From contig JBAZKL010000003.1 in the NCBI GenBank assembly GCA_041650835.1, positions 163,682-227,681 of the forward strand: a stretch of DNA of 64,000 nucleotides, in the 5' to 3' direction. Source of the stretch: Candidatus Omnitrophota bacterium (GTDB taxonomy: Bacteria; Omnitrophota; Gorgyraeia; Gygaellales; Profunditerraquicolaceae). Below the pieces are notes generated by a model, which had not been told where the DNA came from, did no database searches, and saw only the letters and a program-made list of their open reading frames with translations. Made by a program: the position numbers and the translations under genes. The stretch's first letter is position 1. Each line of letters opens with the position of its first letter. Shown here piece after piece: positions 8,801 through 47,543 of this stretch.

Positions 8801-9507
8801 TTCCGGCGCTCCTGCTCCGCGCGCTCGGCTTCCAATTGCTGCTGCTGGCGCATCCGTTCTAATTCGAGTTTTTGCGTGATCAATTCCTGCTTCTTCGCTT
8901 CTATCTCCGCCAGGCGTGCCTGCGCCAAGCGCTCGCGCTCTAATTTTTCTTCATTTAATTGTTTTTGCTCTTCTTGCTTTACCATCTCATCTTTACGCCT
9001 GCGCTCCTCATCCTGGGCAAAAAAACGGGCTTGCGTGAAGACTCTTTTTTCTTCCTCCAGATAGATCTGCCGCTGGATCTCTTCTTCTTCCTTTATATAC
9101 TGGTCTATCCTGTTGACCAACGCGCTGATCCTGCCGTCTTCGCCTAAATATTCTGCCTGTATGCCTGAAACGGTTTTCGAAGCCGGCGAGGCTTCACCTA
9201 TTTTTCTGTCCACTCCGCAGGCAGGCATAGCTGGGGCGGGAAAAGACTCAAGGTGCCCTATCTGCATGGTTACCGGCGACTGCTCCTGCAGAAAATCATT
9301 AATCTCTTGTTTCCGGCGTAAGATCTCTTCCTTTTTCTTACGCAGAGAACGAATATACTCTTCCTCTGCCTTGACCTTGCGCTGCATTTCTTCAAGGCGC
9401 AGCTCTTTTTCAGCCATATTATTATCTTGAGCGTAAACAACCCCCGCTCCCCAAACCATGCATCCCGTCACATAAAACCCAGCGATTATTAAAAATAGTC
9501 TTTTCAT
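5842..9507 (-). CDS. Giant coiled-coil lipoprotein (1221 aa, E/K/Q/A/R-rich) with internal tandem repeats
   Basis: Signal peptide with lipobox (FYVTGC). The remainder is almost entirely heptad-like charged low-complexity sequence. A 171-bp (57-aa) unit is repeated three times (about 6770-7260), and an ~80-bp unit twice (about 8520-8680). Antisense plus-strand ORFs also look repetitive for the same reason. Confidence 0.8.
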   Translation of the reverse strand: MKRLFLIIAGFYVTGCMVWGAGVVYAQDNNMAEKELRLEEMQRKVKAEEEYIRSLRKKKEEILRRKQEINDFLQEQSPVTMQIGHLESFPAPAMPACGVDRKIGEASPASKTVSGIQAEYLGEDGRISALVNRIDQYIKEEEEIQRQIYLEEEKRVFTQARFFAQDEERRRKDEMVKQEEQKQLNEEKLERERLAQARLAEIEAKKQELITQKLELERMRQQQQLEAERAEQERRKMLSKKQKEEERRQRLSELEKRKEEKRKLAQQKKEARLQQVAEEQKRQDALAKQEEEKRLAAEKQAAEEQKRQDALAKQEEEKRLAAEKQAAAEEKKSQEEQIKQARLKKLEEAKKAKEELLKQREEERREAAREKQEHLQELAAAKEKIREERKLLAEERKQEELRRQAEEKERAAELARAEEEKKQEAEKIKIEKQKQKEAAQKKLQQEKEKLKQECTQQLTEQEQEYLAKIEEQKQLLKAQKGALEKQKEARRLEVQQAKEARLKKKAEEKKDRQERMKQEAQKRLEAEKKEQERRDQLALEQARLRDEKKQQLIQEKQDRLKEKEKAAQSAPPGADQEKKRALEVEKSVEALKPQEALKPERATAPVEPSLLPQDSAAGEQQAEDVDTWLAIRKEVSLEEARIQKEELRKQKLQKKARGKLKNKLAQENEQASLRKPVAEKKSEEQLAQEEEEKRLAAEKEAQEKSAQLSAEQAELKTKNKINAAEKRKQLLEQKRIAAEAKSVAAQEEAQRQERLAKEAEEKQLAADKEAQEKQKQLAEEQAGVKKAMRLVGQAKREERLRLLKEEEQRQERLAKEAEEKQLAADKEAQEKQKQLAEEQAGVKKAMRLVEEAKRQERLKQLKEEEQRQERLAKEAEEKQLAADKEAQEKQKQLAEEQAGVKKAMRLAEEAKRQERLKQLKEEYQRQEQQAKQEEEKRLAAEKQAEVERSRLAEVRKLRVAEKHKELLEQKQAAAAARVFAEEEEKSRLEQLAKEEEEKRLAAEKQEQERIHQLEEQKRQIALQEQELKKQRLAQHQEALQQKLETLKKIEESRLQLVEQKAQEEKQIHEQQLAEEKAKLERVQQLKAAKEERKKQAQLAREEARQHKEELVAQAQERRQRAIEDRQLQAELRQQRRQSQQPLFDKREMAAKTKVDQQQTVIDRRKQAQLDKEQLEYQMNKRSSNQVRQSSQEASQVKKEKAVKSWLNKLEEMDARLRQVLW

Positions 9508-34692: not shown

Positions 34693-35424
34693 CTATTTAT
34701 TAAACCTGAAATTCGCCAGGTCGGCATCCTGCATAATATAATCTTTTTGCTCAAGGCGCTGCTTTCCAGCTTGTTTTGCCTGCGTCTCCCCGCCTGCCTG
34801 TATAAAATCGTTAAAGCTGATGATCTCCGCGCGGATAAAGCCTTTCTGAATATCGGAATGGATCACGCCCGCGGCCTCCCAGGCAGTCGCCCCCTGCTTT
34901 AAGCTCCAGGCGCGGTTTTCTTTGTCGCCAACCGTAAAAAAACTGATATAACCGCTTTCTTTATACGCCTTGGCTAAAACACCGCTTAAATCCTCCAACT
35001 CCTGCTTCTCGACGCAAACAACGGGCTTGCCCGTCACCAAGCCGTAGCCGGCCATTAATTCTTTTTCTGCAGGGGTTAAAGGAGCGTTAAAAATAAATTC
35101 TTCTTTTTCCAGGAGTGTCTTTAGTTTTTGCAACAGCGCTTTTTCCTCTTCTGAAGCGCTGCGGCCCAGGCGGCCTTCGACAAATTCCAGGTCCTTGATG
35201 ATCAAATCGGTGCGGGAATCAGATAAGGTCAGGATAGCGTCGGCATTCGGGATATCATTCTCTCCGACAAGCTCAACCTGAACGGGGGTCTTTTTCTTTG
35301 CCTTGACTAACTTATCAGCCTGATCAAGGCGGGGGTCTTTAATATTTTGCTTGCCTACGGTTAAATCCGGGACGCAATAAAGGGCGATCTTCATGTTTTT
35401 TGTGCGCGCATAACTTATGAGCAC
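34693..35424 (-). CDS. YchF/Obg-family homolog with TGS/DUF933 C-terminal domain but lacking the P-loop; a possible pseudo-GTPase or 5'-truncated remnant
   Basis: The C-terminal 130 aa match the YchF consensus closely (FFTVGDKENRAWSLKQGATAWEAAGVIHSDIQKGFIRAE...QAGKQRLEQKDYIMQDADLANFRF). The N-terminus aligns only from YchF residue ~38 (DPRLDQ). No GxxxxGKS/T G1 motif is present. Confidence 0.6.
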   Translation of the reverse strand: MLISYARTKNMKIALYCVPDLTVGKQNIKDPRLDQADKLVKAKKKTPVQVELVGENDIPNADAILTLSDSRTDLIIKDLEFVEGRLGRSASEEEKALLQKLKTLLEKEEFIFNAPLTPAEKELMAGYGLVTGKPVVCVEKQELEDLSGVLAKAYKESGYISFFTVGDKENRAWSLKQGATAWEAAGVIHSDIQKGFIRAEIISFNDFIQAGGETQAKQAGKQRLEQKDYIMQDADLANFRFNK

Positions 35425-35469: not shown

Positions 35470-37446
35470 TTAATGGTGTTCTGCGTGCGCGTGTTCTTCT
35501 TCATGCTTCTTAGAAGCCAGGTAGTGGCTAATGATCGGCTGAGCGACCTTATGAGGGGCTTCCGCGTAATGGGAAAACCGCATCGTATAGGAACCGCGGC
35601 CGCCGGTGATCGAACGCAGGTCATTGGCATACGTAAACATTTCAGAAGCCGGAACCTGCGCCTTAACGATCTGGGATTTTCCCACAACATCCATACCGAT
35701 CATGTGCCCCCGGCGGGAATTGATATCACCTGATATCGCGCCCAGGAATTCTTCAGGGAGAACGACTTCCACATCCATGATCGGTTCAAGTAAAACCGGG
35801 CCTGCTTCGGCAACCGCTTTTCGAAGCGCCATAGCTCCTGCGATCTGAAAAGCCATATCGGAAGAATCGACATCATGATATGAACCGTCAACAAGCGTGA
35901 CACGTACATCCACTATCGGGTATCCCGCGACCGCGCCTTCCGCGCAGGCCTGGCGTATCCCTTTTTCAGCCGAGGGGATAAAATTCCTCGGGATCGCCCC
36001 GCCAAAGACCTTATCAAGGAACTCAAAGCCTTTACTTCTCTCCAAAGGCTCGATCTCAATCCATACATCGCCGTATTGGCCGCGGCCGCCGGACTGCCGC
36101 TTGAACTTTCCCTGCACCCGCGCTTTTTTCGTGATCGTTTCTTTATAGGATACTTTCGGAGTACCCAGGTCGACCTCGACGTTAAACCTCTTTTTCATCC
36201 GCTCAACCATGATCCCCAAATGCAGATCGCCTAATCCGGAAACGATCAACTCTTTGGTCTGCTGGTCATGGGTCACTTTAAAGGTAAGGTCCTCCGCGGC
36301 GAGCTTATGCAAAGCATTGGCGATCTTATCCTCGTCATTGCGCGATTTCGGATGTACCGACGCGGATATCGCCGGCTCAGGAAAGACAAGCGGCTCAAAG
36401 ACCAAAGGATGCTTCTCATCGGCAAGCGAATCAGACGTAACGGTATCTTTTAATTTAGCGATAGCCACAATATCGCCGCAGGACGCCTGATCCACCAACC
36501 GTTGTTCTTTCCCCTGCAGGATATAGATATGGCCGATGCGCTCCTTAACCTGTTTACTCACATTAAAGAAAGCGGTGTTGGATAACAAGGACCCGGAAAA
36601 TACGCGCAAGAGCGTCAGATGCCCGACGTACGGGTCGGATATCGACTTAAAAACAAAAGCCGCAAAATTGGCTTCAGGAGAAAGAACGACCTCTATTTTC
36701 TCTTCCGGCGTAAGCGGATTACGCGCGATCACTTTCGCGCGTTCCCGGGGGTCCGGGAAATATTTAAGCACCGCGTCCAAGAGCTCAACCACGCCTTTAT
36801 CCGTGGCGGCAGAACCGGTGAGCACCGGAAAGATCTTTCGCCTGACCACTGCCTGCCGCAAGCTTACCGTTAATTCCTCTACTGATAACGCAGTGCCGTT
36901 CAAATATTTTTCCAGGAGCGCATCATCGCTTTCAGCCACGACTTCCACCAGTTCCGGAGCGCTCAGGTCAGCAATGATCACCGCTTTTTTGGAAAGGCAA
37001 TTCTGGATATCAACAAGGACCTTGGCAACATCAACGCCATCTTTATCGGTTTTGTTGATAAAAATAATGCCCGGCAAGCCGGCATCCTCTGCCATTTGCC
37101 AAGCCCGCTCAGTACCCACTTCAACGCCTGCGGTCGCCTCCACCACAATCACCGCGCTATCGACCGCCCGCAGGCCGGAAAGTACTTCCCCCAGGAAATC
37201 CGCGTAACCGGGAGCATCTACAATCTGGATCCGGGTATCCCTGCAATCGCAAAACAACAAACTCGCGTTAATGGAACTCTTGCGCGTTATTTCGTCAAAG
37301 CTGTAGTCGCTGACGGTCGTCCCGTCGGCAACAGCCCCTTTGCGCGTCGTCGCTTTACAGAGAGAAAGCATGCTTTCCGCAAGAGATGTCTTACCGGATT
37401 GCGCGTGGCCCAAAAGAATGAGACTGCGTTTATTTTTTACATCCAT
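35470..37446 (-). CDS. EF-G family translational GTPase paralog (EF-G-like) with His-rich C-terminal tail
   Basis: G1 GHAQSGKTSL, G3 DAPGYADF, G4 NKTD, then EF-G domains II-V. The C-terminus ends HEEEHAHAEHH. It is diverged from canonical fusA at the N-terminus. Confidence 0.8.
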   Translation of the reverse strand: MDVKNKRSLILLGHAQSGKTSLAESMLSLCKATTRKGAVADGTTVSDYSFDEITRKSSINASLLFCDCRDTRIQIVDAPGYADFLGEVLSGLRAVDSAVIVVEATAGVEVGTERAWQMAEDAGLPGIIFINKTDKDGVDVAKVLVDIQNCLSKKAVIIADLSAPELVEVVAESDDALLEKYLNGTALSVEELTVSLRQAVVRRKIFPVLTGSAATDKGVVELLDAVLKYFPDPRERAKVIARNPLTPEEKIEVVLSPEANFAAFVFKSISDPYVGHLTLLRVFSGSLLSNTAFFNVSKQVKERIGHIYILQGKEQRLVDQASCGDIVAIAKLKDTVTSDSLADEKHPLVFEPLVFPEPAISASVHPKSRNDEDKIANALHKLAAEDLTFKVTHDQQTKELIVSGLGDLHLGIMVERMKKRFNVEVDLGTPKVSYKETITKKARVQGKFKRQSGGRGQYGDVWIEIEPLERSKGFEFLDKVFGGAIPRNFIPSAEKGIRQACAEGAVAGYPIVDVRVTLVDGSYHDVDSSDMAFQIAGAMALRKAVAEAGPVLLEPIMDVEVVLPEEFLGAISGDINSRRGHMIGMDVVGKSQIVKAQVPASEMFTYANDLRSITGGRGSYTMRFSHYAEAPHKVAQPIISHYLASKKHEEEHAHAEHH

Positions 37447-37662
37447 ATGCCAACACTCCTTTGTAATAATAACATTAATAATTATTATTTATCGAGAGAG
37501 AAAACAGCATAAGTAGTAAAATAACCAGATTGTATATAATTATATATAGGTAAGATTATATCTCAGAGCAAAAAGCCGGTCAAGAAAATAAAAAGGAGAG
37601 GCAACAATACCTGGTAAGCAAAGAAGTAACCGGGAATATCTTTACTAAGGGCCATAGTGCGT

Positions 37663-38850
37663 TTATTCGAGATACGTATAGATTTTCCCTTTATAGTTAC
37701 GCAAAACGTACTTACCCTTAGCCTGGGAAAGCAAATAATTGGAGCTAATAGGTATTTTTCCTCCGCCGCCGGGTCCGTCAATAACATAGGTCGGGACCGC
37801 GTACCCTGAAGTATGGCCGCGGAGCTTTTCCATAATATTAATTCCCGCGGCTACGGGAGTGCGAAAATGGCCGCTGCCCTTGACCGGGTCACATTGATAA
37901 ATATAATACGGGCGCACCCTGATCTTAAGCAGGTCATGCATCAGTTTACGCATGATATAGGGCCGGTCATTGATCCCCTGCAGCAAAACAGTCTGACTGC
38001 CTAACGGGATGCCCGCTTCAGAGAGCATGTCACAGGCGATCTTACAGCGCCTGGTGATCTCCTTAGGATGGTTGAAATGGATGCTCATCCAGATCGGAGA
38101 ATACTTCTTAAGCATAGAGATCAAATCTTCGGTAATACGCTGCGGCAGGGTCACCGGGACCCGGGTGCCGATACGCAAAAATTCGACATGAGGGATCGCG
38201 CGCAATTTCTTAAGTAACTCCCCCAGTACGTCATCTTCAAGCAATAAGGGATCGCCGCCTGAAATCAAGACGTCGCGGATCTTTTTATTGCCGCGTATAT
38301 ACTCGAGGGCCGCATCCAGCTTATTTAAAGACCCGACAACTCCGTTATCTTCCTTGCCCACCAGCCTTCTCCTGGTGCAATGACGGCAATACATAGCGCA
38401 TTGCTCGGTGACCAGGAGTAATATCCGGTCGGGGTAGCGGTGCACTAAATGCGGAGCGGGAGAATCGCGGTCTTCCGCGCAAGGGTCGACCATTTCGTAA
38501 GGCCCGACCTGAAATTCATTCATCGTGGGAACCGCTTGCCGCCTGATCGGGCAGCGGGTATCTTCCTGATCTATCAAAGTCGCCCAATACGGGGTAATAG
38601 CCATTGCCATGCGCCCTTTGGCATTTTTAATTCCTTCTTCCTCTTCGGGAGTAAGCTTAATAATCTGGCTGATCTGATCTAATTTGGTAACACGGTTCTT
38701 TAACTGCCACCGCCAATCTTCCCAATCCAGGGGGTTTATATCCTTATATAAGCTGATCTGCTGGTAATCCCTGCCCCTTTTCCCGGGTCGAACGGCTATC
38801 AAATTTTCTGGCAGTAATTTTTGGCCTTCAGTTACCACCGGATTATTCAT
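37663..38850 (-). CDS. kamA: L-lysine 2,3-aminomutase (radical SAM, KamA family)
   Basis: CAMYCRHCTRRR radical-SAM cysteine triad. KamA-specific blocks ITPYWATLIDQEDTRCPIRRQAVPT, HRYPDRILLLVTEQC and LISGGDPL. 395 aa, longer than EpmB-type enzymes. Confidence 0.9.
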   Translation of the reverse strand: MNNPVVTEGQKLLPENLIAVRPGKRGRDYQQISLYKDINPLDWEDWRWQLKNRVTKLDQISQIIKLTPEEEEGIKNAKGRMAMAITPYWATLIDQEDTRCPIRRQAVPTMNEFQVGPYEMVDPCAEDRDSPAPHLVHRYPDRILLLVTEQCAMYCRHCTRRRLVGKEDNGVVGSLNKLDAALEYIRGNKKIRDVLISGGDPLLLEDDVLGELLKKLRAIPHVEFLRIGTRVPVTLPQRITEDLISMLKKYSPIWMSIHFNHPKEITRRCKIACDMLSEAGIPLGSQTVLLQGINDRPYIMRKLMHDLLKIRVRPYYIYQCDPVKGSGHFRTPVAAGINIMEKLRGHTSGYAVPTYVIDGPGGGGKIPISSNYLLSQAKGKYVLRNYKGKIYTYLE

Positions 38851-39850
38851 TTTTTGCTTTCCTCCTTTTATAAGCGCTCATTAATATTGATTCGATCAAG
38901 TCGCCATAGGTCAGTCCGGCCGCGTAGGCCATGATCGGGAAATTCGATTCCTTAGGATTAAGGCCGGGGAGAGGATTGATCTCCAGGACATAGGGAATAT
39001 TATCCGCGCTGAGGCGGATATCCGTGCGGGAAATATCCAGGCATCCGACTGCCCGATGCGTGCGTAACGCGACTTCTTTGATTTTCTTCTCGGTTTCTTT
39101 GTCCAGGCGCGCCGGGCAATAGAATGTCGGGGTCAACCCCATCTCTTCATTTCCCTGGAATTCTTTCATCCTCCAGGAATAAAAATATTCGCCGCTTTTA
39201 GCGCAGCTGGTAAAATCGATTTCCAGGATAGGCAAGACATCTATCTTACCGTTTTCCAGGATCCCGACGGTAAACTCCCTGCCTTCGATGAACTCCTCCA
39301 CTAACACTTCCTGCTTATAAAGAGAAATGATCTCATGGGCCTTGGCAAAAAGCTCTTTCGGCGAATGGACCACATTTGATTTATTAATACCCTTAGCGGA
39401 ACCCTCGCAATTCGGCTTGAGGATCAAAGGGAAGCGTAACGCCGGGTCTAATTTTTCATTCCCCTTAACTAAGATCTGGAACGCCGGGGTGGGAATATTC
39501 TCCGCTTTGAGGATTTTTTTGGTAAGCGCTTTGTTTAAAGCCAGCGCCAGCGAAAGGGTATTAGATCCGGTATACGGGATATCCAAGTAATCCAGGATCG
39601 CGGGAACCTCGGATTCGCGGAACTTGCCGTGGTTTCCTTCAGCGATATTAAAAACCATGTCCGCGCCATGCTTCTTGAAGAAAGAAAAAAGGTTGGAGCG
39701 CTCCACGTCGATATAATCGACACTATGCCCCCTGGAACGCAGCGCGGAAGTGATCGCATTGATGGTCTCTTCGGAATCAAACTCTGAAAAATAATCCGGA
39801 GGCTTTGTTCCGTCTTCTTTCTTTAAATTACACGTCAGGGTAATTTTCAC
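38843..39850 (-). CDS. ATP-grasp ligase, D-Ala-D-Ala ligase-like
   Basis: Ddl-like N-terminal domain. ATP-grasp motifs ILKPNCEGSAKGI, EEFIEGREFTVGIL and the C-terminal LEINPLPGL. It overlaps kamA by 8 nt. Confidence 0.75.
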   Translation of the reverse strand: MKITLTCNLKKEDGTKPPDYFSEFDSEETINAITSALRSRGHSVDYIDVERSNLFSFFKKHGADMVFNIAEGNHGKFRESEVPAILDYLDIPYTGSNTLSLALALNKALTKKILKAENIPTPAFQILVKGNEKLDPALRFPLILKPNCEGSAKGINKSNVVHSPKELFAKAHEIISLYKQEVLVEEFIEGREFTVGILENGKIDVLPILEIDFTSCAKSGEYFYSWRMKEFQGNEEMGLTPTFYCPARLDKETEKKIKEVALRTHRAVGCLDISRTDIRLSADNIPYVLEINPLPGLNPKESNFPIMAYAAGLTYGDLIESILMSAYKRRKAKNE

Positions 39851-39871
39851 CCTGCCCTTCCTTTCTTATAC

Positions 39872-40864
39872 TTATATAAGATTACACCGCTTCAACGCGC
39901 TTTTCAAGATCCTGCCGATGACCTCGTTATATGAAATACCGAGGGCCTTGGCAACCGCCATAAAGACATCCTCCGAGGAAAGCGACGGCAGCGGATTGAT
40001 CTCTAAAACATAGGGCTTGCCTTTTTCATCAACGCGGAAATCAACCCTGCCGAAATCACGGCATTCAATCGCGTTATACGTGGCAAGCGCCAGACTGGTT
40101 AATTCAGCAGCCAGCTCCGGCTTTATCTTTGCCGGGCAGACATATTCCAGGGCATCCGACTTAATATGCCCGAAGGTATAGAATTTATCATTGAGCTTCA
40201 ATTTACCGTCGATCTTGATCTGCACGATCGGCATCACCTCCGCGGGGTCATTGCCGATAACGGCGACGGTAAATTCTTCCCCGCGAATGAACTCCTCAAC
40301 CAGCGCGGGCTGTTTATAGGTATTGATCACGTAGTCGACCTGCCGCTTTAATTCATCTTTATTCTCCACGCGGGAATTATCGTTCATCCCTTTGGAAGAC
40401 CCTTCAAAGCGCGGTTTAACGATCATCGGGAAATGGGCGTGGTCCATCTCCGCGAATGAGGTATCATCCGGCTTGACCTCAAATGATTTCGGCGTCCTGA
40501 TACCGTCGGCAACGAAGATCTTCTTCGCCATCAGCTTATCGAGCGACAGACCCAGGCTCAAAGCGTCGGCGCCGACAAAAGGAACTCCTGCCATCTCCAG
40601 CAAAAGCGGCACCTGCGATTCACGGTTCCTGCCGGAAACACCTTCCGAGATATTAAAAACAATATCCACTTTCAGATTACTGATATTATCCAGGAGGTTA
40701 GCCACATTCCCGATCTTTTTTACCTTAAACCCTTGAGACTCGATGGCTTTGGCAATAACATCGATAGTCGACGGATGGTCGAATTCGGCGTTCGCGTCCG
40801 GAGGATCTCCCTCCTTGAATTCGTAATCAGATTTTAAGTCGTATGTTAAACCGATGATTTTCAT
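39872..40864 (-). CDS. ATP-grasp ligase, D-Ala-D-Ala ligase-like, second paralog
   Basis: MIVKPRFEGSSKGM, EEFIRGEEFTVAVIG, VDFRVDEKGKPYVLEINPLPSL. It is paralogous to the ATP-grasp gene downstream. Confidence 0.75.
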   Translation of the reverse strand: MKIIGLTYDLKSDYEFKEGDPPDANAEFDHPSTIDVIAKAIESQGFKVKKIGNVANLLDNISNLKVDIVFNISEGVSGRNRESQVPLLLEMAGVPFVGADALSLGLSLDKLMAKKIFVADGIRTPKSFEVKPDDTSFAEMDHAHFPMIVKPRFEGSSKGMNDNSRVENKDELKRQVDYVINTYKQPALVEEFIRGEEFTVAVIGNDPAEVMPIVQIKIDGKLKLNDKFYTFGHIKSDALEYVCPAKIKPELAAELTSLALATYNAIECRDFGRVDFRVDEKGKPYVLEINPLPSLSSEDVFMAVAKALGISYNEVIGRILKSALKRCNLI

Positions 40865-41078
40865 GGCATATAAAAAATAAAGGCTCTTCCGTCCAAGAGC
40901 CTTTTTAAGCTTTTACCTGATTTTTCCAATGTCCTTACCTATCCTCCATAAAATTGGTAAATACCTCATTGATACATTTATTTTTTTATCACATCTGCCG
41001 ACTTTGTCAAGTATTTTCTATCGACGGGAAAGCGGACTTGAGAAAAAATCTTTTCACCGCGGCGAATTATCGACGGAA

Positions 41079-41816
41079 TTACGCCGCGAATTCAACGTTT
41101 CCCCAGCTTGCGAAGCTGTTCCCCAGGACGACAACCACGCCGCTGACCCCTTTAAACGAGCGGGCAAAACCAACTGCCGCAGGCAGGTCTTTTTTTGCGT
41201 GCACGCGGTTGGCGACGGCGGTAGCGACGGCATCGGCAAATGAGGCATCGGCGGCGATAATAACGACGCTGTCGGCGCAACCGAAGCTCAGCGAATGCCC
41301 GAAGGTACCCGTTGATGCGCAAATCCCGATGGGGCGGCCCTGAGGCTTCACCTTAAGAAAAAGTTTCGCCGATACCAAGGAATCCCCCGCGTAAATACCG
41401 AGGATACGGGCGCGGGTTGTTTTCAGAAAAATGTCTCCCCCGTTCTCGATAATAACATCGCGATAGCCCCGGCGCAGAAGGCACTGCCCCAGGAACTTCG
41501 CGATCGCCCCTGCCACCGCCGCCATCGGCCCGACATTCGCCCGGCGAGCGGCCCGGCCCATATCTCTGACGATCGCCGGTGAGCGCGTTTCCACCGCAAG
41601 CGGGGTGAGGCTCGTCAGAAAACGGCGGTCTTTCTGAATATAACTTTCGATTTGCCGCCGGTAGTAAAGGACCTTGCCTTCAATAAAAGCACGATCAACC
41701 GGCTTGTCGGTTAAGATGTGCAAATCGGTTTCCCGCACAATAACTTCAGTCTTGCACAAACCTTCGGCCTTCACCCACTCCCGGTAAAACCGTTTCTGAT
41801 ACTTATTGCTTTTCAT
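41079..41816 (-). CDS. Conserved hypothetical protein, UPF0280-like
   Basis: 245 aa. GPMAAVAGAIAKFLG...ENGGDIF...GICASTGTFGHSLSFGCADSVVIIAADASFADAVATAVANRV is reminiscent of the UPF0280 family. The assignment is from memory only. Confidence 0.4.
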   Translation of the reverse strand: MKSNKYQKRFYREWVKAEGLCKTEVIVRETDLHILTDKPVDRAFIEGKVLYYRRQIESYIQKDRRFLTSLTPLAVETRSPAIVRDMGRAARRANVGPMAAVAGAIAKFLGQCLLRRGYRDVIIENGGDIFLKTTRARILGIYAGDSLVSAKLFLKVKPQGRPIGICASTGTFGHSLSFGCADSVVIIAADASFADAVATAVANRVHAKKDLPAAVGFARSFKGVSGVVVVLGNSFASWGNVEFAA

Positions 41817-42464
41817 TTATTCGTTATTTTCGTTAATCTCTTCTATCTTGACGCCGCAGGAAGCCAAGTCTTTTTTAAGCTGTGCTGTCCCCTGATAGAC
41901 AAACGCCCGGATACCCAGCAAACGGGCCTTCGCCACTAAATCCGCCCGGTCATCGACGTAAAAGGTTTCCGGCGGCGCCACCCCCAGCGCTTTCATTGCT
42001 TGAATATAGATCTGCGGATGAGGCTTCGTCAAGTGGGCTTCAAAAGAAGTAAAGATATCGGGGAAAATGTCAAAAAGCGCGTACTGTTTCTTGATATACT
42101 CAAAATGTAACACATTGGTATTAGAAAGGAGCGCCACAATATATTCCTGCCGCAGCCGCGCCGCTATTTGCGCCGTTGATATATTATCCTGCGTCAAAAA
42201 GAAGATCTCGTTCCATACCGGCTTGAAAGCCTTATAGCTGAGGGAAAGCCGCAGGATCTTTTTTATCTTTGAGAAAAAATCCTGCGGAGAGAGCCTGCCT
42301 TCTTCAAAAGACTTCAGGAGCTTAACCGCCCCGAACACGCGGGAGAAAATTTCCTCGGGCTTTTTGTCCGTGAAAGCGGATATCCTGGAGGCCGCCCGCA
42401 TAGTATCAAAGCTGACCAGGACATTGCCCAGGTCGAAAATAACCGCCTTCAGAGGGGTGCTCAT
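41817..42464 (-). CDS. HAD-superfamily hydrolase
   Basis: Motif I VIFDLGNVLV has the Asp nucleophile in the DxG context. The C-terminal YVDDR(A) is a motif IV-like acidic pair. 215 aa. Confidence 0.75.
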   Translation of the reverse strand: MSTPLKAVIFDLGNVLVSFDTMRAASRISAFTDKKPEEIFSRVFGAVKLLKSFEEGRLSPQDFFSKIKKILRLSLSYKAFKPVWNEIFFLTQDNISTAQIAARLRQEYIVALLSNTNVLHFEYIKKQYALFDIFPDIFTSFEAHLTKPHPQIYIQAMKALGVAPPETFYVDDRADLVAKARLLGIRAFVYQGTAQLKKDLASCGVKIEEINENNE

Positions 42465-42481
42465 AGTATGCTCAACAATAA

Positions 42482-43453
42482 TTAATTATTGGTATCCCGT
42501 GATTTTTTAAATAAGTCGAGGAACCGGTCTTCGTATTCCCGGTAGACATTCCACTTATCCAGTTCAGCTTTTAATTGATGGGCTTTTGAGATATCCGTCT
42601 TTGCGTCAACGAAAAGACTTTCGATCTTTTCTTTCACGGACTGAGGAAGCCTGGTGAGTTGGCTGAGGCTTTTCTTTATCTTTTCGATCTCTTCTTCGTT
42701 AATAGGCGCAGGCGACGAAGGGCCGCCGGCCTTCAAAAAGTCCAGAAGTTTATTGATCTGTTCCTCCACGCCATGGGTTTGTTCAATCAGGCCGGTAAAA
42801 TCTATCCGGAGATTAATGATCTTGCAGAGAGACTCCAGAAGGATAAGAGAAGCACGGGGATTCTCGATCTGGATAGTATAGAGCGGGATCTCCCCTAACA
42901 GGCAGAGGCCGTCCAGGCCTTCGCGTTTTGCCAAGCCTAAAAAGAGGCCGTTCAAACCGCTGATCTGGCCTTCGGATAACACCTGCAGGCCAAGCTTCTT
43001 TAAACCGGCGATAAGCTGCGGCGACGTCGCGGTTAACCAGACATTCGGCGGCTGATTATGATCGATAGGCTGCGGCATGGCGGCAAAGCCGATCACCGTT
43101 TTTACTTTATACGCCTTAGCCAGATTAATTATCCGTTCACAGTATTCTTCGGCCTGCTCTAAATCAGGCTGTGAATCGCTGGCAAAGATGATCAGGTCAT
43201 TTTTACCTGTTTTATTCTTCCAGAAATAGAATTTGTTTTTCGGCAGCTCAGGCAGCCGCAAGATCCCGTCAACGACATTACTTCCCGTCAGATAGAAGAA
43301 GTCTTTCGGTGGGATCTCGGCGAATTCAATAGCCGCGAGTTTTTCAATAAGGTATGTTGCCGCTTTGATCGCGACTTCCCCCATGCCGGGCCATGCCACA
43401 ATTAAATACGGGCTCTTCAGCCGCGGTTTTTTATACACCCTAATACCTTCCAT
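42482..43453 (-). CDS. PAC2-family (proteasome assembly chaperone-like) protein
   Basis: The N-terminal PYLIVAWPGMGEVAIKAATYLIEKL matches the PAC2 signature (LI.G.PG.G.V). 323 aa. Confidence 0.5.
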   Translation of the reverse strand: MEGIRVYKKPRLKSPYLIVAWPGMGEVAIKAATYLIEKLAAIEFAEIPPKDFFYLTGSNVVDGILRLPELPKNKFYFWKNKTGKNDLIIFASDSQPDLEQAEEYCERIINLAKAYKVKTVIGFAAMPQPIDHNQPPNVWLTATSPQLIAGLKKLGLQVLSEGQISGLNGLFLGLAKREGLDGLCLLGEIPLYTIQIENPRASLILLESLCKIINLRIDFTGLIEQTHGVEEQINKLLDFLKAGGPSSPAPINEEEIEKIKKSLSQLTRLPQSVKEKIESLFVDAKTDISKAHQLKAELDKWNVYREYEDRFLDLFKKSRDTNN

Positions 43454-43488
43454 AATATAATCTCCTTAATGAAGCCCAGTACTTAAGG

Positions 43489-44613
43489 CTAAAATTTAAG
43501 ATCTTTTAAGAACCTCTCCAGAACGACCGTCCCCTGATACAGGTTATCCAGCGAAACATATTCATTAATGATATGGGCGCAGCCTTCAGAACCAAAACCC
43601 GTTGCCACCGCGGGAATATGCCTGTCCTGAAAGAAGGTAATGACCGTCGCTCCTTCAGACCCGCAAATCCGCGGGGATACCTTACACTGGCGCATCGCGG
43701 CGGTCAAATATTTTACCAACGGATGCCCTTCATCGATGAGATAGGGTTTTTGGATACCCTCAACTTCTATCGCGAATTTCCGGCTGTGCTTCTTTACAAT
43801 ACTTTTTAACAACCGCAGGATAACTTGAGCGTCTGTCCCCGGTAAAAACCGGAAATCCAGTTCAAATTCACACCAATCGGCGACCACATTTACTTTATCG
43901 CCTCCTTTAATGGTCCCGACATTGATAGTGGGAGGCTGTAAATACCGGTTCTTTCTAAAAGGAATTTTGCTTTTTTTAAGCTCTGAAACTATCCTGACCG
44001 CGGCATCAATAGCGTTATCGCCGCGCCAGGGATAAGCGCCATGGGCCCTTTTGCCTTCAAGCACAACTTTAACGTGCAAAAGGCCTTTCTGCGCTACAAT
44101 AACCTCAAATTCCTCGGAATCAAGCACCACCGCCGCGTCAACTTTTATTATACCCTTTTTAAGCAGCGGAATCAATCCCCACGTAGAACCGCTTTCTTCG
44201 TCGGCTGTGGCAGCCAGTACCAGATTATAATACAAACCCGCCTTATCTTCAACAATACTGTTTATTGCTTCGACGCAGCAGGCAAGATTCCCCTTACAAT
44301 CGGTAGCGCCGATACCATAAAGTTTATTTTGAGCAACCACGCCGGCGAAAGGATCAATTCGCCATTTTCTGCCGGCAGGGACCGTATCTAAATGAGGCGT
44401 GACCAGGAGCGAATGCTTCGCATGTTTAGCCGGTAAATACGCAAGGAGATTAGGGCGGTTTTTCTTAAATTCCACTATTTTCACGCGCAGGCTGAGCTTT
44501 TCCAGGTATGCCTTAAGAAAACAGGCAATTGCCGTTTCATTACCGGGAGGATTTTGAGAATCTATCTTTATTAACGACCGGGTTAGATCTATTAATCGTT
44601 TTTTATTGATCAT
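43489..44613 (-). CDS. M20-family metallopeptidase / deacylase (ArgE/DapE-like)
   Basis: LLVTPHLDTVPAG and YGIGATDCKGNLA are metal-binding motifs of the M20 family. A dimerisation-domain insert is present. 374 aa. Confidence 0.85.
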   Translation of the reverse strand: MINKKRLIDLTRSLIKIDSQNPPGNETAIACFLKAYLEKLSLRVKIVEFKKNRPNLLAYLPAKHAKHSLLVTPHLDTVPAGRKWRIDPFAGVVAQNKLYGIGATDCKGNLACCVEAINSIVEDKAGLYYNLVLAATADEESGSTWGLIPLLKKGIIKVDAAVVLDSEEFEVIVAQKGLLHVKVVLEGKRAHGAYPWRGDNAIDAAVRIVSELKKSKIPFRKNRYLQPPTINVGTIKGGDKVNVVADWCEFELDFRFLPGTDAQVILRLLKSIVKKHSRKFAIEVEGIQKPYLIDEGHPLVKYLTAAMRQCKVSPRICGSEGATVITFFQDRHIPAVATGFGSEGCAHIINEYVSLDNLYQGTVVLERFLKDLKF

Positions 44614-44639: not shown

Positions 44640-47543
44640 CTAGAACGCGTGGCTCAAACCTATCCAAAAATGCGTATCCTCTTTCGGATCATTGATAGGC
44701 CGGGCGATATCAAGGCGCAGCACCGCCTTTTCCAGAAATCCGGCAATATCAAAATGCAGGCGCAAGCCTAACCCCGCGTCCTTCTTAAAATGAGCGCCTT
44801 CAAAATCGTTATGCCAGGCCTTGGCGATATCAAAAAATCCGACGCCCTGAATTTTATTCAGGCAAAAAACATTGTCCAGGAAATACATTTTCATATCTTT
44901 GGTCAAAGGAAAACGGTACTCCGCCGTTCCTAAAACCATACGCGCCCCCTGGATCGTTTCCCTGCCATACCCCCGCAATCCATCCGCGCCTCCCAAATCA
45001 AAAAGGTCCTTATCTCCCGGGCCTCCCCATCCAACCTTGAGGCGTGTCGCTATTTTCTGTGAAAGCTTCGGCACCAGCAGGCGGTAATTATCCAATTCTA
45101 AACTCGTGCGCCAAAAAGATTCTTTTCCTCCCAGGAAATGTCCGGCAAATTCCTGCTGAGGGGTGAATTTCCAGCCATAATCCGGATCTGCATACGGGCC
45201 GTACCGGCACAAAGAAGCGGCCATGCCGACGATCGATTCATCCGTTTTTCGATAAACGGTATTGCGGGCGTCTTCCGCGCCATTAACAGCGGCCTGTTGA
45301 TCAAGTTTTTGATCCCTTAAAAGATACAAAGTAACATGATCATTAAGGTCAAAAATGCCGTACCGCGCCGGCCATAGTTCTCGCCTGATATAAAGCTTGC
45401 CGCCGGACACATCTTTACGGCGCGTACGGTAATTGCGGTTAAAAACCTCAAGCCCCACGGACACCTGTTTATTGAAAAGGTGGGGCAACTCATAGCCGGC
45501 CGTATATTCCGACTCTTTATCATTAAAATCGTAGAGAGAAGAAAATTTCACCAGCCCATCATAGGGCTTTGCCGCCGAGGCAGCCGCCCCCATCCGCGAC
45601 CCCCGAAGATCAGGGCCGAAAACCACATTATAAGATCCGGCAGGCATCAGGGAAGGGATCTCATAGGCAAAGAAATACCAGGGGACCGGCTTAAGAAAAA
45701 TATGCCGCGGCCAGGAATTGTTTACCCGGTCCACATCCAGGATGATCTTATTATCCGGATCGACCACGACTTGAGAAACCGCCTTGCCGGCATCAAGAGG
45801 TAAAGCTATATCCCGCCCGCGCCCGTCCCACTGAAAAACACTTTGCGTTTGGTCGCGATAAACGACCCTTGCTTCAACCGGCATTTCGATCGAACCGCGG
45901 TTTTCTAAAACAAACGCCCCTTCACCCGACGGCTTCACGGCATAATCGCAGGTTTTCTTGGTCTTCAGCCAATTATTAAAGAATCCGGTCAAGTCTTCGC
46001 CCGATTCCTCATTACAGATCCTCACAAGATCACTCAATGCGAAATTCTTGAACCTGAATTCTTCGGTATAACGCTTCATGATCCGCTCGAACACCCGGCT
46101 GCCGACGAAAGCCTCGAGCATTTCCAAAACAGCGGCGCCCTTGCCGTAGGTCAAGGCGAATATCGATGAGGGCTCCTGAAAGCTCGAAAGGTCGCTTACG
46201 ACCGGCCCATCGAGAGAATTTTTCGCCAGGTACAGGTAACGGGCGACCGTTGAGCCGTGAAATGTAAAATCAGGAATTAGCCACCGTAGCGCCGGCGGCA
46301 AAGTCAGAACGGAGGCGTTCTTCCCGTAAACATGCTCCAAATAACGTAATATCCAATATGAATTCATGCCCTCATCAAGGAACATCTCCCTGTATTCATC
46401 GGAACCGATGATATTATAAAACCATTGATGGCCGGTCTCATGCGATATGAGGAAATTAAAATAGCGCTCCAAAAACCCGGGGACCCGATAAACGCGCGTA
46501 TCAATAAATATAAAACTGGAAGACTGGCACCCGCCGTATCCTAAATAACTCGGGACAATGGAAAAATTCTTATACGGATACGGCCCGAAGCGTTCGGCGT
46601 AAAACCGCATTAATGACGCGGCGTAATCGGCGGCGGAAACCGCTCTTTTTTCGTCGCCTTTAAGATAATACGAATAGATCGTCGCATCGCCATACGCAAG
46701 TTTATGCACTAAAAATGACCTGCTGAGCCCCAATGAAAAGTCCCTCACCGGGAATTCCGTCTCCATAACAAGGGTTTTTGTCCCGTCAGGGTTGTCTGTT
46801 TGGCCTTTTACTAAAGCCGTTGAAGCCACGATCTCATCCCGCGGCAGAGTAAAGGTGACCTTATAATAAGCGGCTTCACTGAAATAAGGCTGGTGATAAA
46901 TATAAAAAGGATAATTATGCCACCCAGATTTATCCACAACGCTTAAGATCGGATACCAGCGGGCAAGGCTGGTGATCTCCCGGTGCCAGCCGAACCTGCC
47001 GTATGCGTGAGGTATCTCGACCTTGAAATCCAAGGTAACCTCTTGAGTATCACCGGGTTTAAGCGGTGAATCAAGCTCAACCTTAAGGATCGTCCGGTCA
47101 TCGCCTTCCACGCGGTAAGCAAGCGCCGAACCCTTCGCGGATACTTTTTCTATTTTTAGATCTCCCCCCTGAAATCCTTCAGGGAAAGGATTCATTTTGA
47201 AATAACCGGCATACCGGTACATGAAACCGATCTCTTTTTTTGTGTACGTGCGGTGAGGATAGATATGAAAATAAAGGGCATCAAGGGGAATGTCGGTGTT
47301 ATTGGTAAACGCGACTTTCTGGCTGGCCGCGATAGTATGATTTTTAGTATCCAACTCGGCGGTAATATCATAGCGGGGGCATTCGGCGGCGTAAGAAAGT
47401 AAGAAATTGAAAACAAAAAGGCAAAAGAAAAACGCAAGAAACAATACAAACCTTACGCTCTTATTCATATCAAAAACTCCTGATTTTCCGGGTGCCCCAG
47501 TCGCCAGTACACCAGTTACTATAACTATGGACCATAGTCTCAA
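44640..47543 (-). CDS. Fusion protein: N-terminal M1-type (aminopeptidase N-like) zinc metallopeptidase domain plus C-terminal Omp85/BamA-type outer-membrane beta-barrel
   Basis: The N-terminal hydrophobic region carries alternative starts (M1 or MNKSVRF). The gluzincin motif is HETGHQWFYNIIGSDEYREMFLDEGMNSYW (HExxH...E). The C-terminal ~350 aa have amphipathic beta-strand periodicity, the Omp85 signature FDLGGADGLRGYG (LGG...LRGY) and a terminal aromatic (...WIGLSHAF). Confidence 0.7.
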   Translation of the reverse strand: MRLWSIVIVTGVLATGAPGKSGVFDMNKSVRFVLFLAFFFCLFVFNFLLSYAAECPRYDITAELDTKNHTIAASQKVAFTNNTDIPLDALYFHIYPHRTYTKKEIGFMYRYAGYFKMNPFPEGFQGGDLKIEKVSAKGSALAYRVEGDDRTILKVELDSPLKPGDTQEVTLDFKVEIPHAYGRFGWHREITSLARWYPILSVVDKSGWHNYPFYIYHQPYFSEAAYYKVTFTLPRDEIVASTALVKGQTDNPDGTKTLVMETEFPVRDFSLGLSRSFLVHKLAYGDATIYSYYLKGDEKRAVSAADYAASLMRFYAERFGPYPYKNFSIVPSYLGYGGCQSSSFIFIDTRVYRVPGFLERYFNFLISHETGHQWFYNIIGSDEYREMFLDEGMNSYWILRYLEHVYGKNASVLTLPPALRWLIPDFTFHGSTVARYLYLAKNSLDGPVVSDLSSFQEPSSIFALTYGKGAAVLEMLEAFVGSRVFERIMKRYTEEFRFKNFALSDLVRICNEESGEDLTGFFNNWLKTKKTCDYAVKPSGEGAFVLENRGSIEMPVEARVVYRDQTQSVFQWDGRGRDIALPLDAGKAVSQVVVDPDNKIILDVDRVNNSWPRHIFLKPVPWYFFAYEIPSLMPAGSYNVVFGPDLRGSRMGAAASAAKPYDGLVKFSSLYDFNDKESEYTAGYELPHLFNKQVSVGLEVFNRNYRTRRKDVSGGKLYIRRELWPARYGIFDLNDHVTLYLLRDQKLDQQAAVNGAEDARNTVYRKTDESIVGMAASLCRYGPYADPDYGWKFTPQQEFAGHFLGGKESFWRTSLELDNYRLLVPKLSQKIATRLKVGWGGPGDKDLFDLGGADGLRGYGRETIQGARMVLGTAEYRFPLTKDMKMYFLDNVFCLNKIQGVGFFDIAKAWHNDFEGAHFKKDAGLGLRLHFDIAGFLEKAVLRLDIARPINDPKEDTHFWIGLSHAF

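Follow-up and report, generated by a model that had tools for sequence, protein, structure and literature searches.

The window, a stretch of 64,000 nucleotides from a Candidatus Omnitrophota bacterium, carries a lysine 2,3-aminomutase gene (kamA) that overlaps a gene for an ATP-grasp ligase of the D-Ala-D-Ala ligase (Ddl) fold. This arrangement raises the question of whether the aminomutase supplies beta-lysine to the ligase, and which of the neighbouring genes take part. In the preliminary description, seven co-oriented genes at 37663-44613 were proposed to form one beta-lysine pathway. An ORF check of the window located all seven ORFs at these coordinates on the minus strand, and AG2 and kamA share 38843-38850, the 8-nt overlap that had been described. 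The features of the locus are:

37663-38850, minus strand: kamA, lysine 2,3-aminomutase (radical SAM/PLP), 395 aa; Radical_SAM and LAM_C domains, TIGR03820
38843-39850, minus strand: AG2, Ddl-fold ATP-grasp amide ligase, 335 aa; Dala_Dala_lig_C, E 2e-35
39872-40864, minus strand: AG1, second Ddl-fold ATP-grasp amide ligase, 330 aa; Dala_Dala_lig_C (PF07478), E 1e-37
40870-40904, minus strand: intrinsic-terminator-like hairpin (10-bp stem) with U-run
40921-40947, minus strand: conserved leader motif, GGAGG-N13/14-TTGGAAAAA
40982-41010, minus strand: promoter-like site, TTGACA, 17 nt, TG-n-TAAAAA (extended -10)
41079-41816, minus strand: UPF0280/ApbE-like gene, a neighbour outside the conserved module; NF003323, PDB 2o34
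41817-42464, minus strand: HAD gene, part of a separate triad
42482-43453, minus strand: PAC2 gene, part of the separate triad; PF09754, E 7e-39
43489-44613, minus strand: M20 gene, part of the separate triad; Peptidase_M20 and M20_dimer domains

Only the last three genes, AG1-AG2-kamA, form the conserved unit. Their junctions in the window are 8 nt and 21 nt, and an AG1 ortholog is located immediately upstream of AG2 in all 21 Omnitrophota-type loci with that side on the contig (L022, with its contig cut within AG2, is left out of this count). The best 120 AG2 homologs are all 73-100% identical, which reflects strong conservation within Omnitrophota.

A 214-nt spacer (40865-41078), which the preliminary description overlooked, parts the UPF0280 gene from AG1 and contains the promoter-like site and a strong terminator hairpin. 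The promoter-like motif occurs once in the window (0 expected), and 17 of 22 Omnitrophota-type loci have it upstream of AG1. Folding of the AG1 leader gave an MFE of -25.2 kcal/mol (z -2.68). The terminator-like hairpin stops 6 nt short of the AG1 start codon, and alignment of 16 Omnitrophota leaders shows that it is kept, including some compensatory changes; AG1 itself has no Shine-Dalgarno sequence. The leader motif is present in one copy in the window (0.09 expected by chance) and possibly marks a mini-ORF starting TTG-GAA-AAA (Met-Glu-Lys). It is conserved, yet the downstream 'peptide' varies from 3 to 22 codons among leaders. These signals mark AG1-AG2-kamA as a three-gene operon complete in itself, with a putative promoter and a leader terminator of its own.

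The window KamA is predicted to be an enzyme that converts L-lysine to (3S)-beta-lysine. It narrowly passes the TIGR03820 equivalog cut-off (530.9 bits against 525.4), and the match spans positions 6-360 of the 417 in the model because the C-terminus is missing; the 395-aa protein stops at residue 367 of the 416-aa Clostridium enzyme. Compared with the solved Clostridium subterminale structure (2A5H), phmmer gives an E value of 7e-144 and BLASTP an identity of 54%, and most ligase-linked KamAs are 47-60% identical to the characterised enzyme. Residues Cys125/129/132, Arg134 (carboxylate), Asp293 and Asp330 (epsilon-amine binding) and Lys337 (PLP; all in 2A5H numbering) are retained. The latter four residues and the radical SAM CxxxCxxC motif, which the window KamA also has, are present in 56 of 56 complete ligase-linked homologs. 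The identification as KamA instead of EpmB, made in the preliminary description, is thus upheld by the TIGR03820 pass, the intact CxxxCxxC and the failed EpmB model (TIGR03821, 246 bits against a cut-off of 369.3); an EF-P gene was found neither in the window nor in the 80 loci surveyed. Glutamate 2,3-aminomutase was likewise rejected (TIGR04368, 479.1 bits against 650), with Asp293 and Asp330 both retained; the glutamate enzyme reportedly has Lys/Asn at these two positions.

AG1 and AG2 are 38% identical to each other. Automated annotation labels these ligases D-alanine--D-alanine ligase or VanB. As members of the Ddl family, both were rejected under every curated Ddl cut-off: against NF002378 and TIGR01205 (cut-offs 243 and 245.65), AG1 scores 189.3 and 168.1 bits and AG2 199.8 and 164.1 bits. 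The comparison of substrate pockets with Ddl that had been proposed, performed here in E. coli DdlB numbering, separates a retained catalytic apparatus from a replaced D-Ala site. The ATP, Mg and acyl-phosphate residues (Lys97, Lys144, Glu180, Arg255, Asp257, Glu270, Asn272, Glu15 and Ser150) are kept. Conversely, the D-Ala-site residue His63 is replaced by Glu in both ligases. Tyr216 of the omega-loop triad is Glu in AG2 and is missing from the shortened omega loop of AG1, Leu282 is Asn in AG2 and Val in AG1, and Ser281 is Asp in AG1. Across the ligase family, the substitutions His63 to Glu and Met259 to Arg at substrate positions are near-invariant, and Glu68 is replaced by Arg in all ligase groups except type B. 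The closest relatives of AG1 and AG2 are not PylC proteins, and a pylB/pylD context was not observed.

Of 80 species-level genome loci, 54 have KamA no more than 5 kb from a member of this ATP-grasp family, a linkage far beyond chance. The gene-neighbourhood survey suggested earlier finds the pairing in many bacterial and archaeal phyla. Among Omnitrophota-type loci it holds in 22 of 23, and among loci of other phyla in 32 of 40. The latter include Ignavibacteria/Melioribacteraceae, KSB1, Desulfuromonadales, Anaerolineae, Bacillota, Peregrinibacteria, Bathyarchaeia and Methanosarcinales, and the linkage persists despite variable gene order (AG-AG-KamA, KamA-AG-AG and AG-KamA). A Stygiobacter electus isolate carries the module, and so does a MAG classified as Ignavibacterium album, a species that is in culture. 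In 17 Myxococcota-type loci, fused ligase pairs occur without a neighbouring KamA, so the use of this ligase family extends beyond beta-lysine chemistry. A literature search, with the ATP-grasp neighbourhood survey of Iyer et al. (2009) outside its scope, retrieved no paper describing the KamA/ATP-grasp pairing.

The two enzymes are also physically joined. KamA~ATP-grasp fusions form more than 100 distinct protein clusters in both domain orders, and AG2 belongs to the ligase supergroup that is fused to KamA in many other organisms. The best 120 matches to fusion P0147 comprise over 100 separate clusters (at 90% identity) of complete KamA~AG fusions, with Thermoplasmatota, Methanocellales, Woesearchaeota, Nanoarchaeota, Spirochaetales and Deltaproteobacteria as named sources; AG~KamA, the reverse arrangement, occurs in P0376/P0381, and one KamA/AG fusion lies in a species-representative genome (L026). 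The KamA-fused ligase is of type A in all seven fusion contexts examined. In six of the seven there is a further ligase gene, and the last ligase gene of the module is of type B; in L089 an extra type-A gene lies between the fusion and this last ligase. Other partners that recur with the module are a GNAT, peptidases of various kinds, membrane proteins of the mechanosensitive-channel type and the second type of ligase.

Outside Omnitrophota, most phyla have a module whose second ligase is of type B and which also includes a small GNAT, so the product there is probably also N-acetylated. These GNATs are ~160-180 aa long and match generic GNAT models only, not the AblB model; in L082, a GNAT is fused to a type-B ligase. 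A domain search found no GNAT at 37663-44613 that could serve as an AblB partner. Since the Omnitrophota module is without the GNAT and the type-B ligase, its product may differ from that of other phyla. The preliminary remark that known beta-lysine pathways use GNAT acetyltransferases thus became relevant in an unexpected way, as the module of most other phyla has a small GNAT alongside its ligases.

The conserved linkage and the fusions support a functional coupling of KamA to the Ddl-like ATP-grasp ligases, and the natural reading of this pairing is that beta-lysine is ligated to give an amide or peptide. KamA would convert L-lysine to (3S)-beta-lysine. AG2, encoded beside kamA, would use ATP to form an acyl phosphate and couple beta-lysine to a second amine or carboxylate substrate, with AG1 adding another residue. 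This would yield a small amide that contains beta-lysine, in the form of a di- or tripeptide or an isopeptide, which neighbouring peptidases may turn over. Peptidase_S58, the DmpA/BapA beta-aminopeptidase family, follows the ligases in 6 Myxococcota-type loci, and S51, S15 and HDAC-like hydrolases adjoin the module in other lineages. Enzyme identities, catalytic residues, linkage and fusions are read at the level of sequences and genomes; linkage and fusion are what suggest beta-lysine as the ligase substrate, and from the whole we infer the order of the steps, the kind of partner substrates and the role in the cell. Synthesis of a beta-lysine amide or peptide by these ligases appears quite probable. 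As the overall best explanation, an AG1-AG2-kamA operon for beta-lysine ligation is given a probability of roughly 55%.

Alternatively, the ligases may attach beta-lysine to a protein or other macromolecule in a hypusine- or EF-P-like modification, with ATP-grasp enzymes replacing the lysyl-tRNA-synthetase paralog EpmA. EF-P beta-lysylation is a known use of a KamA-family enzyme, and RimK and TTL are protein-modifying ATP-grasp enzymes. The module is kept in reduced genomes (Peregrinibacteria, Woesearchaeota and Nanoarchaeota), suggesting a core function, and many Omnitrophota loci have an EF-G gene behind kamA. However, this adjacency is confined to Omnitrophota and the EF-G gene in the window has its own promoter-like site; efp is absent from the window and all 80 loci, KamA passes the AblA model and fails the EpmB model, and no conserved candidate substrate gene adjoins the module. 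These observations make protein modification improbable.

A second alternative is that the two ligases build a beta-lysine polymer or oligomer, either a cyanophycin-like nitrogen reserve or a polycationic isopeptide, in alternating or iterative steps, with peptidases degrading it. Modules carry two ligase genes, or three in L088 and L089, and fused ligase pairs are common. Several peptidase families recur beside the module. One gene of Peptidase_S51, the dipeptidase E/cyanophycinase family, begins 4 nt behind an AG~KamA fusion, with a weak cyanophycinase match of 45 bits. Conversely, Ddl-type enzymes yield dipeptides, and we know of no iterative member; a GNAT as partner points to the capping of a small molecule, and in Bacillota a single ligase accompanies KamA. 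Polymer formation is accordingly regarded as unlikely. A wider form of this idea, equally unlikely, is that the module makes a new class of ribosome- and NRPS-independent beta-lysine polyamides or oligomers, as a cyanophycin-like reserve or polycation found in a wide set of uncultured anaerobes (among them Omnitrophota, CPR bacteria and DPANN archaea), with the peptidases as depolymerases.

The proposal that M20, PAC2, HAD, UPF0280, AG1, AG2 and KamA constitute one pathway is very unlikely. The seven genes are co-oriented and close together in the window, their order is identical in L003 and L011, and M20-PAC2-HAD lies immediately upstream of AG1 in L005 and L023; M20 enzymes also include dipeptidases acting on beta-alanyl peptides. 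Nevertheless, UPF0280 and AG1 are separated by a terminator and a new promoter, and M20-PAC2-HAD is a separate conserved triad that coheres independently of the ligase operon. The triad is intact in L003, L005, L011, L014 and L016 and partly seen in L006 and L023, at 0.3 to 7.4 kb from AG1 across loci. Most Omnitrophota-type loci either lack the four upstream genes or have them displaced. These genes are confined to one Omnitrophota subgroup, where they are often displaced (2.7-7.4 kb from AG1 in L006, L014 and L016), and they are not found upstream in L002, L004, L010, L013 and L015 or in any other phylum. UPF0280 adjoins AG1 only in some Omnitrophota loci (L003, L008, L011 and L012) and is missing elsewhere. 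The M20 protein passes the TIGR01910 ArgE/DapE subfamily cut-off (259.7 bits against 217.6) and falls under all DapE and ArgE equivalog cut-offs. The UPF0280/ApbE-like protein matches PDB 2o34 (E 1e-32) and scores 261.7 bits against NF003323, slightly below the cut-off of 271. The idea of beta-lysine ligation by ATP-grasp enzymes thus survives in its KamA/ligase coupling and loses its seven-gene extent. For a hydrolase that reverses the ligation the support is indirect, from the unrelated peptidases and amidohydrolases (S58, S51, S15 and HDAC-like) that adjoin the module in other lineages.

That the ATP-grasp proteins are cell-wall enzymes, either Ddl variants or ligases adding beta-lysine to peptidoglycan precursors, is scarcely credible despite the Ddl fold, the Ddl catalytic residues and the automated annotation, as AG1 and AG2 fall under every Ddl family cut-off, other residues stand in for DdlB His63, Tyr216 and Leu282, the genes have no mur or dcw neighbours, and the module and its fusions are common in Thermoplasmatota, Bathyarchaeia, Methanocellales and Woesearchaeota, which are archaea without peptidoglycan.

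With beta-lysine ligation by AG1-AG2-KamA as the preferred reading, the most likely role of the product is tentatively that of an osmolyte (compatible solute). A PF05552 ('mechanosensitive ion channel, conserved TM helix') protein is encoded directly upstream of AG1 in L019, L020 and L021, and a PF05552 membrane protein directly downstream of KamA in L017; such mechanosensitive-type neighbours occur in two lineages only, and PF05552-only proteins are not proven channels. A Woesearchaeota fusion is preceded by mscL and by Na+/H+ and Na+/Ca2+ exchanger genes. The module occurs in freshwater and groundwater lineages, and with the strong conservation in Omnitrophota, a housekeeping role is no less fitting than that of a stress solute.

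The KamA/ATP-grasp pairing points to an undescribed beta-lysine-containing small peptide. If this is true, it would fill a metabolic gap in many uncultured anaerobes, including very reduced genomes. It would correct a widespread misannotation, because the genes are currently called D-Ala-D-Ala ligase or VanB, and would offer enzymologists a new ATP-grasp specificity, that for beta-amino acids.

Among known systems, the kamA-ablB osmolyte operon of Ca. Methanoperedens, which includes an MscS-like gene (PMC11337218), similarly combines a KamA-type aminomutase with a beta-lysine-derivatising enzyme. The window KamA passes the AblA equivalog model, and mechanosensitive-channel-type neighbours are common to both systems; a GNAT also occurs in the module of most other phyla, but not in the window. 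In place of AblB, derivatisation here would fall to one to three ATP-grasp ligases of the Ddl fold, and the predicted product is an ATP-made amide, beyond a mere acetyl derivative. Compared with Ddl/VanA, AG1 and AG2 share all ATP, Mg and acyl-phosphate catalytic residues; they differ in scoring below the curated cut-offs, in new conserved Glu and Arg residues, in having KamA instead of mur/dcw as genomic partner, and in the presence of the family in archaea. NAGGN, made by Ngg (a bifunctional GNAT and ATP-grasp enzyme) with AsnO, is a non-ribosomal acetylated small-peptide osmolyte. An AG~GNAT fusion likewise exists in the present ligase family (L082), but Ngg uses glutamine, has a differently related ATP-grasp domain and lacks an aminomutase. 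In EpmB/EpmA, a KamA-family aminomutase also feeds beta-lysine to a dedicated ligase; EpmA differs in being a lysyl-tRNA-synthetase paralog with a protein target (EF-P). Carnosine synthase is an ATP-grasp enzyme that activates the carboxylate of a beta-amino acid (beta-alanine, joined to histidine), and its dipeptide is degraded by M20-family dipeptidases; it is eukaryotic and from another ATP-grasp branch, and the likeness is by analogy only. The closest precedent for the predicted logic is PylB/PylC, in which radical SAM isomerisation of L-lysine by PylB precedes ATP-grasp ligation by PylC of the isomer carboxylate to the epsilon-amino group of a second lysine; unlike the window KamA, PylB is not a PLP-dependent KamA-family aminomutase, and no pylD or other pyl genes were found near the module. 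Beta-lysine is otherwise known as an acetylated osmolyte, in EF-P modification, as a fermentation intermediate and as an NRPS building block. The present pairing, if the reading is true, would represent a fifth beta-lysine route, with ATP-grasp ligases linked or fused to the aminomutase across many phyla of both bacteria and archaea.

The window belongs to a metagenome contig of 370 kb, the proteins of which carry the NCBI name Candidatus Omnitrophota. Seven closely packed ORFs, all on the minus strand, were called between positions 37663 and 44613 of the window. AG1 and AG2 are its two Ddl-fold ATP-grasp ligases (Ddl, D-alanine--D-alanine ligase), and KamA is its lysine 2,3-aminomutase.

43489-44613, minus strand: M20 enzyme, meeting the cut-off of the ArgE/DapE subfamily and that of no specific equivalog
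42482-43453, minus strand: PAC2 protein (PF09754)
41817-42464, minus strand: HAD protein, matched by HAD hydrolase profiles
41079-41816, minus strand: UPF0280/ApbE-like protein, slightly below the NF003323 cut-off (PDB 2o34)
39872-40864, minus strand: AG1, ATP-grasp protein with a Ddl C-terminal domain
38843-39850, minus strand: AG2, ATP-grasp protein with a Ddl C-terminal domain
37663-38850, minus strand: KamA, radical SAM protein of the KamA family

The preliminary description had named these genes in the same way, and its labels were upheld by profile searches; the seven same-strand ORFs and the 8-nt overlap between the AG2 and KamA genes are also present.

In profile searches, KamA passes the lysine 2,3-aminomutase (AblA) equivalog cut-off by a narrow margin and falls below the EpmB, glutamate-aminomutase and arginine-aminomutase models. 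The alignment with the solved Clostridium subterminale enzyme (2A5H) runs end to end to residue 367 (E 7e-144), with 54% identity by BLASTP, and the last ~50 residues of the clostridial enzyme are absent from the window protein. The three cluster cysteines, Arg134 and the PLP lysine are retained, as are Asp293 and Asp330, which hold the lysine epsilon-amine. The lysine signature is kept in all 56 complete KamAs linked to a ligase. A search with E. coli EF-P, made to test a connection to that protein, gave zero matches in the window and 80 related loci.

AG1 and AG2 share 38% identity with each other and approximately 30% with Ddl structures, and both score well under all curated Ddl/Van cut-offs in profile searches. 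The AlphaFold model of AG2 is confident (pLDDT 94.9). Together with 124 related domains, the two ligases were mapped onto E. coli DdlB, the sequence of which is identical to 2DLN. The residues that bind ATP and Mg and those for the acyl-phosphate are all conserved, whereas the D-Ala-specific positions are not, and both window ligases follow this pattern. The position of DdlB His63 is nearly always Glu and that of Met259 nearly always Arg; the Glu68 position is Arg in all groups except type B, one of the two groups of module ligases, and the Leu282 position is variable. At the Tyr216 position, AG2 has Glu and other clades have Trp or Gln, while AG1, with its shortened omega loop, lacks the residue. 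The conserved ATP, Mg and acyl-phosphate residues predict that AG1 and AG2 are active ligases, Ddl-like in their working but not Ddl.

The genomic linkage of these ligases to KamA was surveyed with a ligase-family profile scan of one genome per species, which yielded the 80 loci; their ORFs were called and compared with the window proteins. KamA lies within 5 kb of the ligases in 22 of 23 Omnitrophota-type loci, the sole exception being truncated by a contig end, and in 32 of 40 loci from other phyla. No KamA was found within 5 kb of the Myxococcota-type fused ligase pairs (0/17 loci). The Omnitrophota-type group includes a few records labelled Planctomycetales or Margulisiibacteriota, with proteins 50-76% identical to AG2. 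The gene order is AG-AG-KamA in Omnitrophota and Peregrinibacteria, AG-AG-GNAT-KamA (GNAT, an acetyltransferase family) in Ignavibacteria, Melioribacteraceae, Bacteroidota, KSB1 and Desulfuromonadales, KamA-AG-AG in Anaerolineae, KamA-AG with a convergent AG in Bathyarchaeia, and AG-KamA in Bacillota. In one genome of Methanosarcinales, a single KamA~AG polypeptide (the tilde denotes a fusion) was observed.

Such fusions are widespread. Among cluster representatives, three KamA~AG fusions were recovered along with numerous fused ligase pairs. Among the best 120 matches to one of these fusions, more than 100 are full-length KamA~AG proteins, with identity down to 38%, from Thermoplasmatota, Methanocellales, Woesearchaeota, Nanoarchaeota, Spirochaetales and Deltaproteobacteria. 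The reverse domain order, AG~KamA, was also found; the two domain orders therefore imply more than one fusion event. The conserved KamA linkage and these fusions provide strong support for the putative ligation of beta-lysine by the ATP-grasp enzymes, as the preliminary description had proposed.

In a neighbour-joining tree, the ligase domains fall into two groups. One is a type B clade with the second ligase of most phyla; the other is a type A supergroup that holds the ligases next to KamA, the one ligase of Bacillota and the two paralogs of Omnitrophota. In all seven fusion contexts examined, KamA is fused to a type A ligase. A further ligase gene follows in six of the seven, and the final ligase gene of the module is then of type B; one of these loci (L089) carries an extra type A gene between the fusion and the type B gene. 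In one lineage, a GNAT is fused to the type B ligase. This pattern of ligase types suggests a module chain of KamA - ligase A ... ligase B - GNAT, of which the minimal unit would be KamA plus ligase A.

The UPF0280 and AG1 genes are set apart by a 214-nt spacer that holds three elements:

40982-41010, minus strand: promoter-like TTGACA-17-TGnTAAAAA, a single copy in the window where zero are expected
40921-40947, minus strand: conserved GGAGG-N13/14-TTGGAAAAA motif, in the spacer before AG1
40870-40904, minus strand: 10-bp GC-rich hairpin with a U-run, ending 6 nt from the AG1 ATG

Of 22 Omnitrophota-type loci, 17 have the promoter, the GGAGG motif and the strong terminator in this arrangement ahead of AG1. 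A Shine-Dalgarno sequence is absent at AG1 and present at most neighbouring genes. Judged by this architecture, AG1-AG2-kamA is a predicted separate transcription unit behind the leader terminator. A riboswitch in the AG1 leader was considered and dropped, as RNAalifold on 16 aligned leaders gave the terminator hairpin alone, with no other conserved structure and no aptamer-like fold. Rfam gave zero matches in the whole window at gathering thresholds and chance-level matches only when the AG1 leader was searched permissively (best Phe_leader, E 0.18); no lysine, c-di-AMP or Na+ riboswitch was detected by Rfam upstream of the module in 14 loci from other phyla. A lysine-sensing leader peptide was also rejected. 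The mini-ORF (TTG-GAA-AAA...) begins 13-14 nt from the GGAGG, its length varies from 3 to 22 codons, and the ATGA overlap that it often has with AG1 is trivial because AG1 begins with ATG-AAA. The region 40866-41012 (minus strand) resembles an attenuator or a small RNA gene and has no Rfam match or known control signal. In a deep-branching Omnitrophota locus (L017, positions 3641-3922), a 93-aa DUF2089 zinc-ribbon/HTH protein, the gene of which ends 2 nt upstream of AG1, may regulate the operon at that locus.

The four genes upstream of the spacer behave differently from the module. M20, PAC2, HAD and UPF0280 are confined to part of the Omnitrophota group, and no counterpart of any of them was found beside the module in other phyla among the 80 loci, so the single seven-gene pathway of the preliminary description is not supported. 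Where present, the M20-PAC2-HAD triad is intact, at a distance of 0.3-7.4 kb from AG1; in other loci it is missing. A role of PAC2 in an ATP-grasp peptide-tagging system was rejected because its linkage is not conserved. The triad (41817-44613 in the window) is kept together in L003, L005, L011, L014 and L016 and is seen in part in L006 and L023, and its cohesion in Omnitrophota is independent of the distance to the ligase operon. The PAC2 protein (323 aa) has a charged C-terminal extension of ~85 residues past the PAC2 domain.

Other features of the window were recorded. Nearly all ORFs of at least 150 aa in 1-64000 lie on the minus strand; the four on the plus strand each overlap a longer minus-strand ORF. 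All 2-kb bins show a negative GC skew, which places the whole window on one replichore with a strong gene-strand bias. The gene at 44640-47543 (minus strand) encodes a 967-aa protein of unusual architecture, with a Peptidase_M1 aminopeptidase domain and a C-terminal Omp85-type outer-membrane barrel. The product of 5842-9507 (minus strand) has 1221 aa and begins with a hydrophobic N-terminal segment, after which comes highly repetitive, seemingly coiled-coil sequence rich in Glu, Lys, Gln and Ala; this repetitive gene accounts for the extreme AT skew of -0.4 to -0.5 at 6-10 kb. Downstream of kamA, 35470-37446 (minus strand) encodes a short EF-G (658 aa) with a promoter-like site of its own at 37555-37583; its match to the EF-G models is split, with ~45 residues absent in the G domain region. 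EF-G also lies downstream of kamA in L002, L003, L006, L008, L010, L011, L013 and L014. A 243-aa YchF-like protein at 34693-35424 (minus strand) partially matches the 368-residue YchF model, with DUF933 complete at the C-terminus, and 13 Omnitrophota-type loci contain a putative YchF-like family of comparable length (median 233 aa).

The neighbours of the module offer clues to its role. Across the 80 loci, it has no conserved neighbour that is a transporter gene, a precursor-peptide gene or efp, which speaks against a natural product for secretion and against one dedicated target protein. Hydrolases from unrelated families repeatedly adjoin the module, including Peptidase_S58 in six Myxococcota-type loci, a Peptidase_S51 gene 4 nt downstream of an AG~KamA fusion, an S15 hydrolase (CocE/NonD), and HDAC-like amidohydrolases in two lineages, one of them fused to a GNAT (L090). 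A membrane protein of ~225 aa, composed of repeats of the 'mechanosensitive ion channel, conserved TM helix', flanks the operon in four of five deep-branching Omnitrophota loci (three upstream of AG1, one downstream of KamA). In a Woesearchaeota genome, mscL and cation exchangers precede a KamA~AG fusion, and an MscS-like gene is also part of the kamA-ablB osmolyte operon characterised in Ca. Methanoperedens (PMC11337218). The hydrolases, the mechanosensitive-type neighbours and the missing partners together favour, rather than prove, a small solute of the cytoplasm that undergoes synthesis, capping and turnover. An osmolyte role for this product is possible, at somewhat less than even odds.

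In six Myxococcota-type loci (L045, L066, L079, L067, L069 and L078), Peptidase_S58 lies directly 3' of the fused ligases, followed in the first three by a third ligase, a glutathione-synthetase-like ATP-grasp protein. This double ligase with Peptidase_S58 and no nearby KamA has the look of a small-peptide pathway of its own, related to that of the module. In L067, an arginase-family gene is located directly upstream of the fused double ligase.

Outside the 2009 amidoligase survey, which may cover this neighbourhood, no published description that pairs KamA, an aminomutase or beta-lysine with ATP-grasp, Ddl, PAC2 or Omnitrophota was found in the full-text literature, and the database names of the relatives are automated labels only ('D-alanine--D-alanine ligase', 'KamA family radical SAM protein'). 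The AblA/AblB, PylB/PylC, NAGGN synthesis and carnosine synthase systems do not include the module. Its ligases fail the Ddl membership tests, AblB is absent and PylC is a distant structural relative. It resembles AblA/AblB in joining an aminomutase to a derivatising enzyme, and PylB/PylC in joining a radical SAM lysine isomerase to an ATP-grasp ligase. The combination of GNAT and ATP-grasp is similar to NAGGN synthesis, which yields an acetylated peptide osmolyte, and carnosine synthase is likewise an ATP-grasp enzyme that works on a beta-amino acid.
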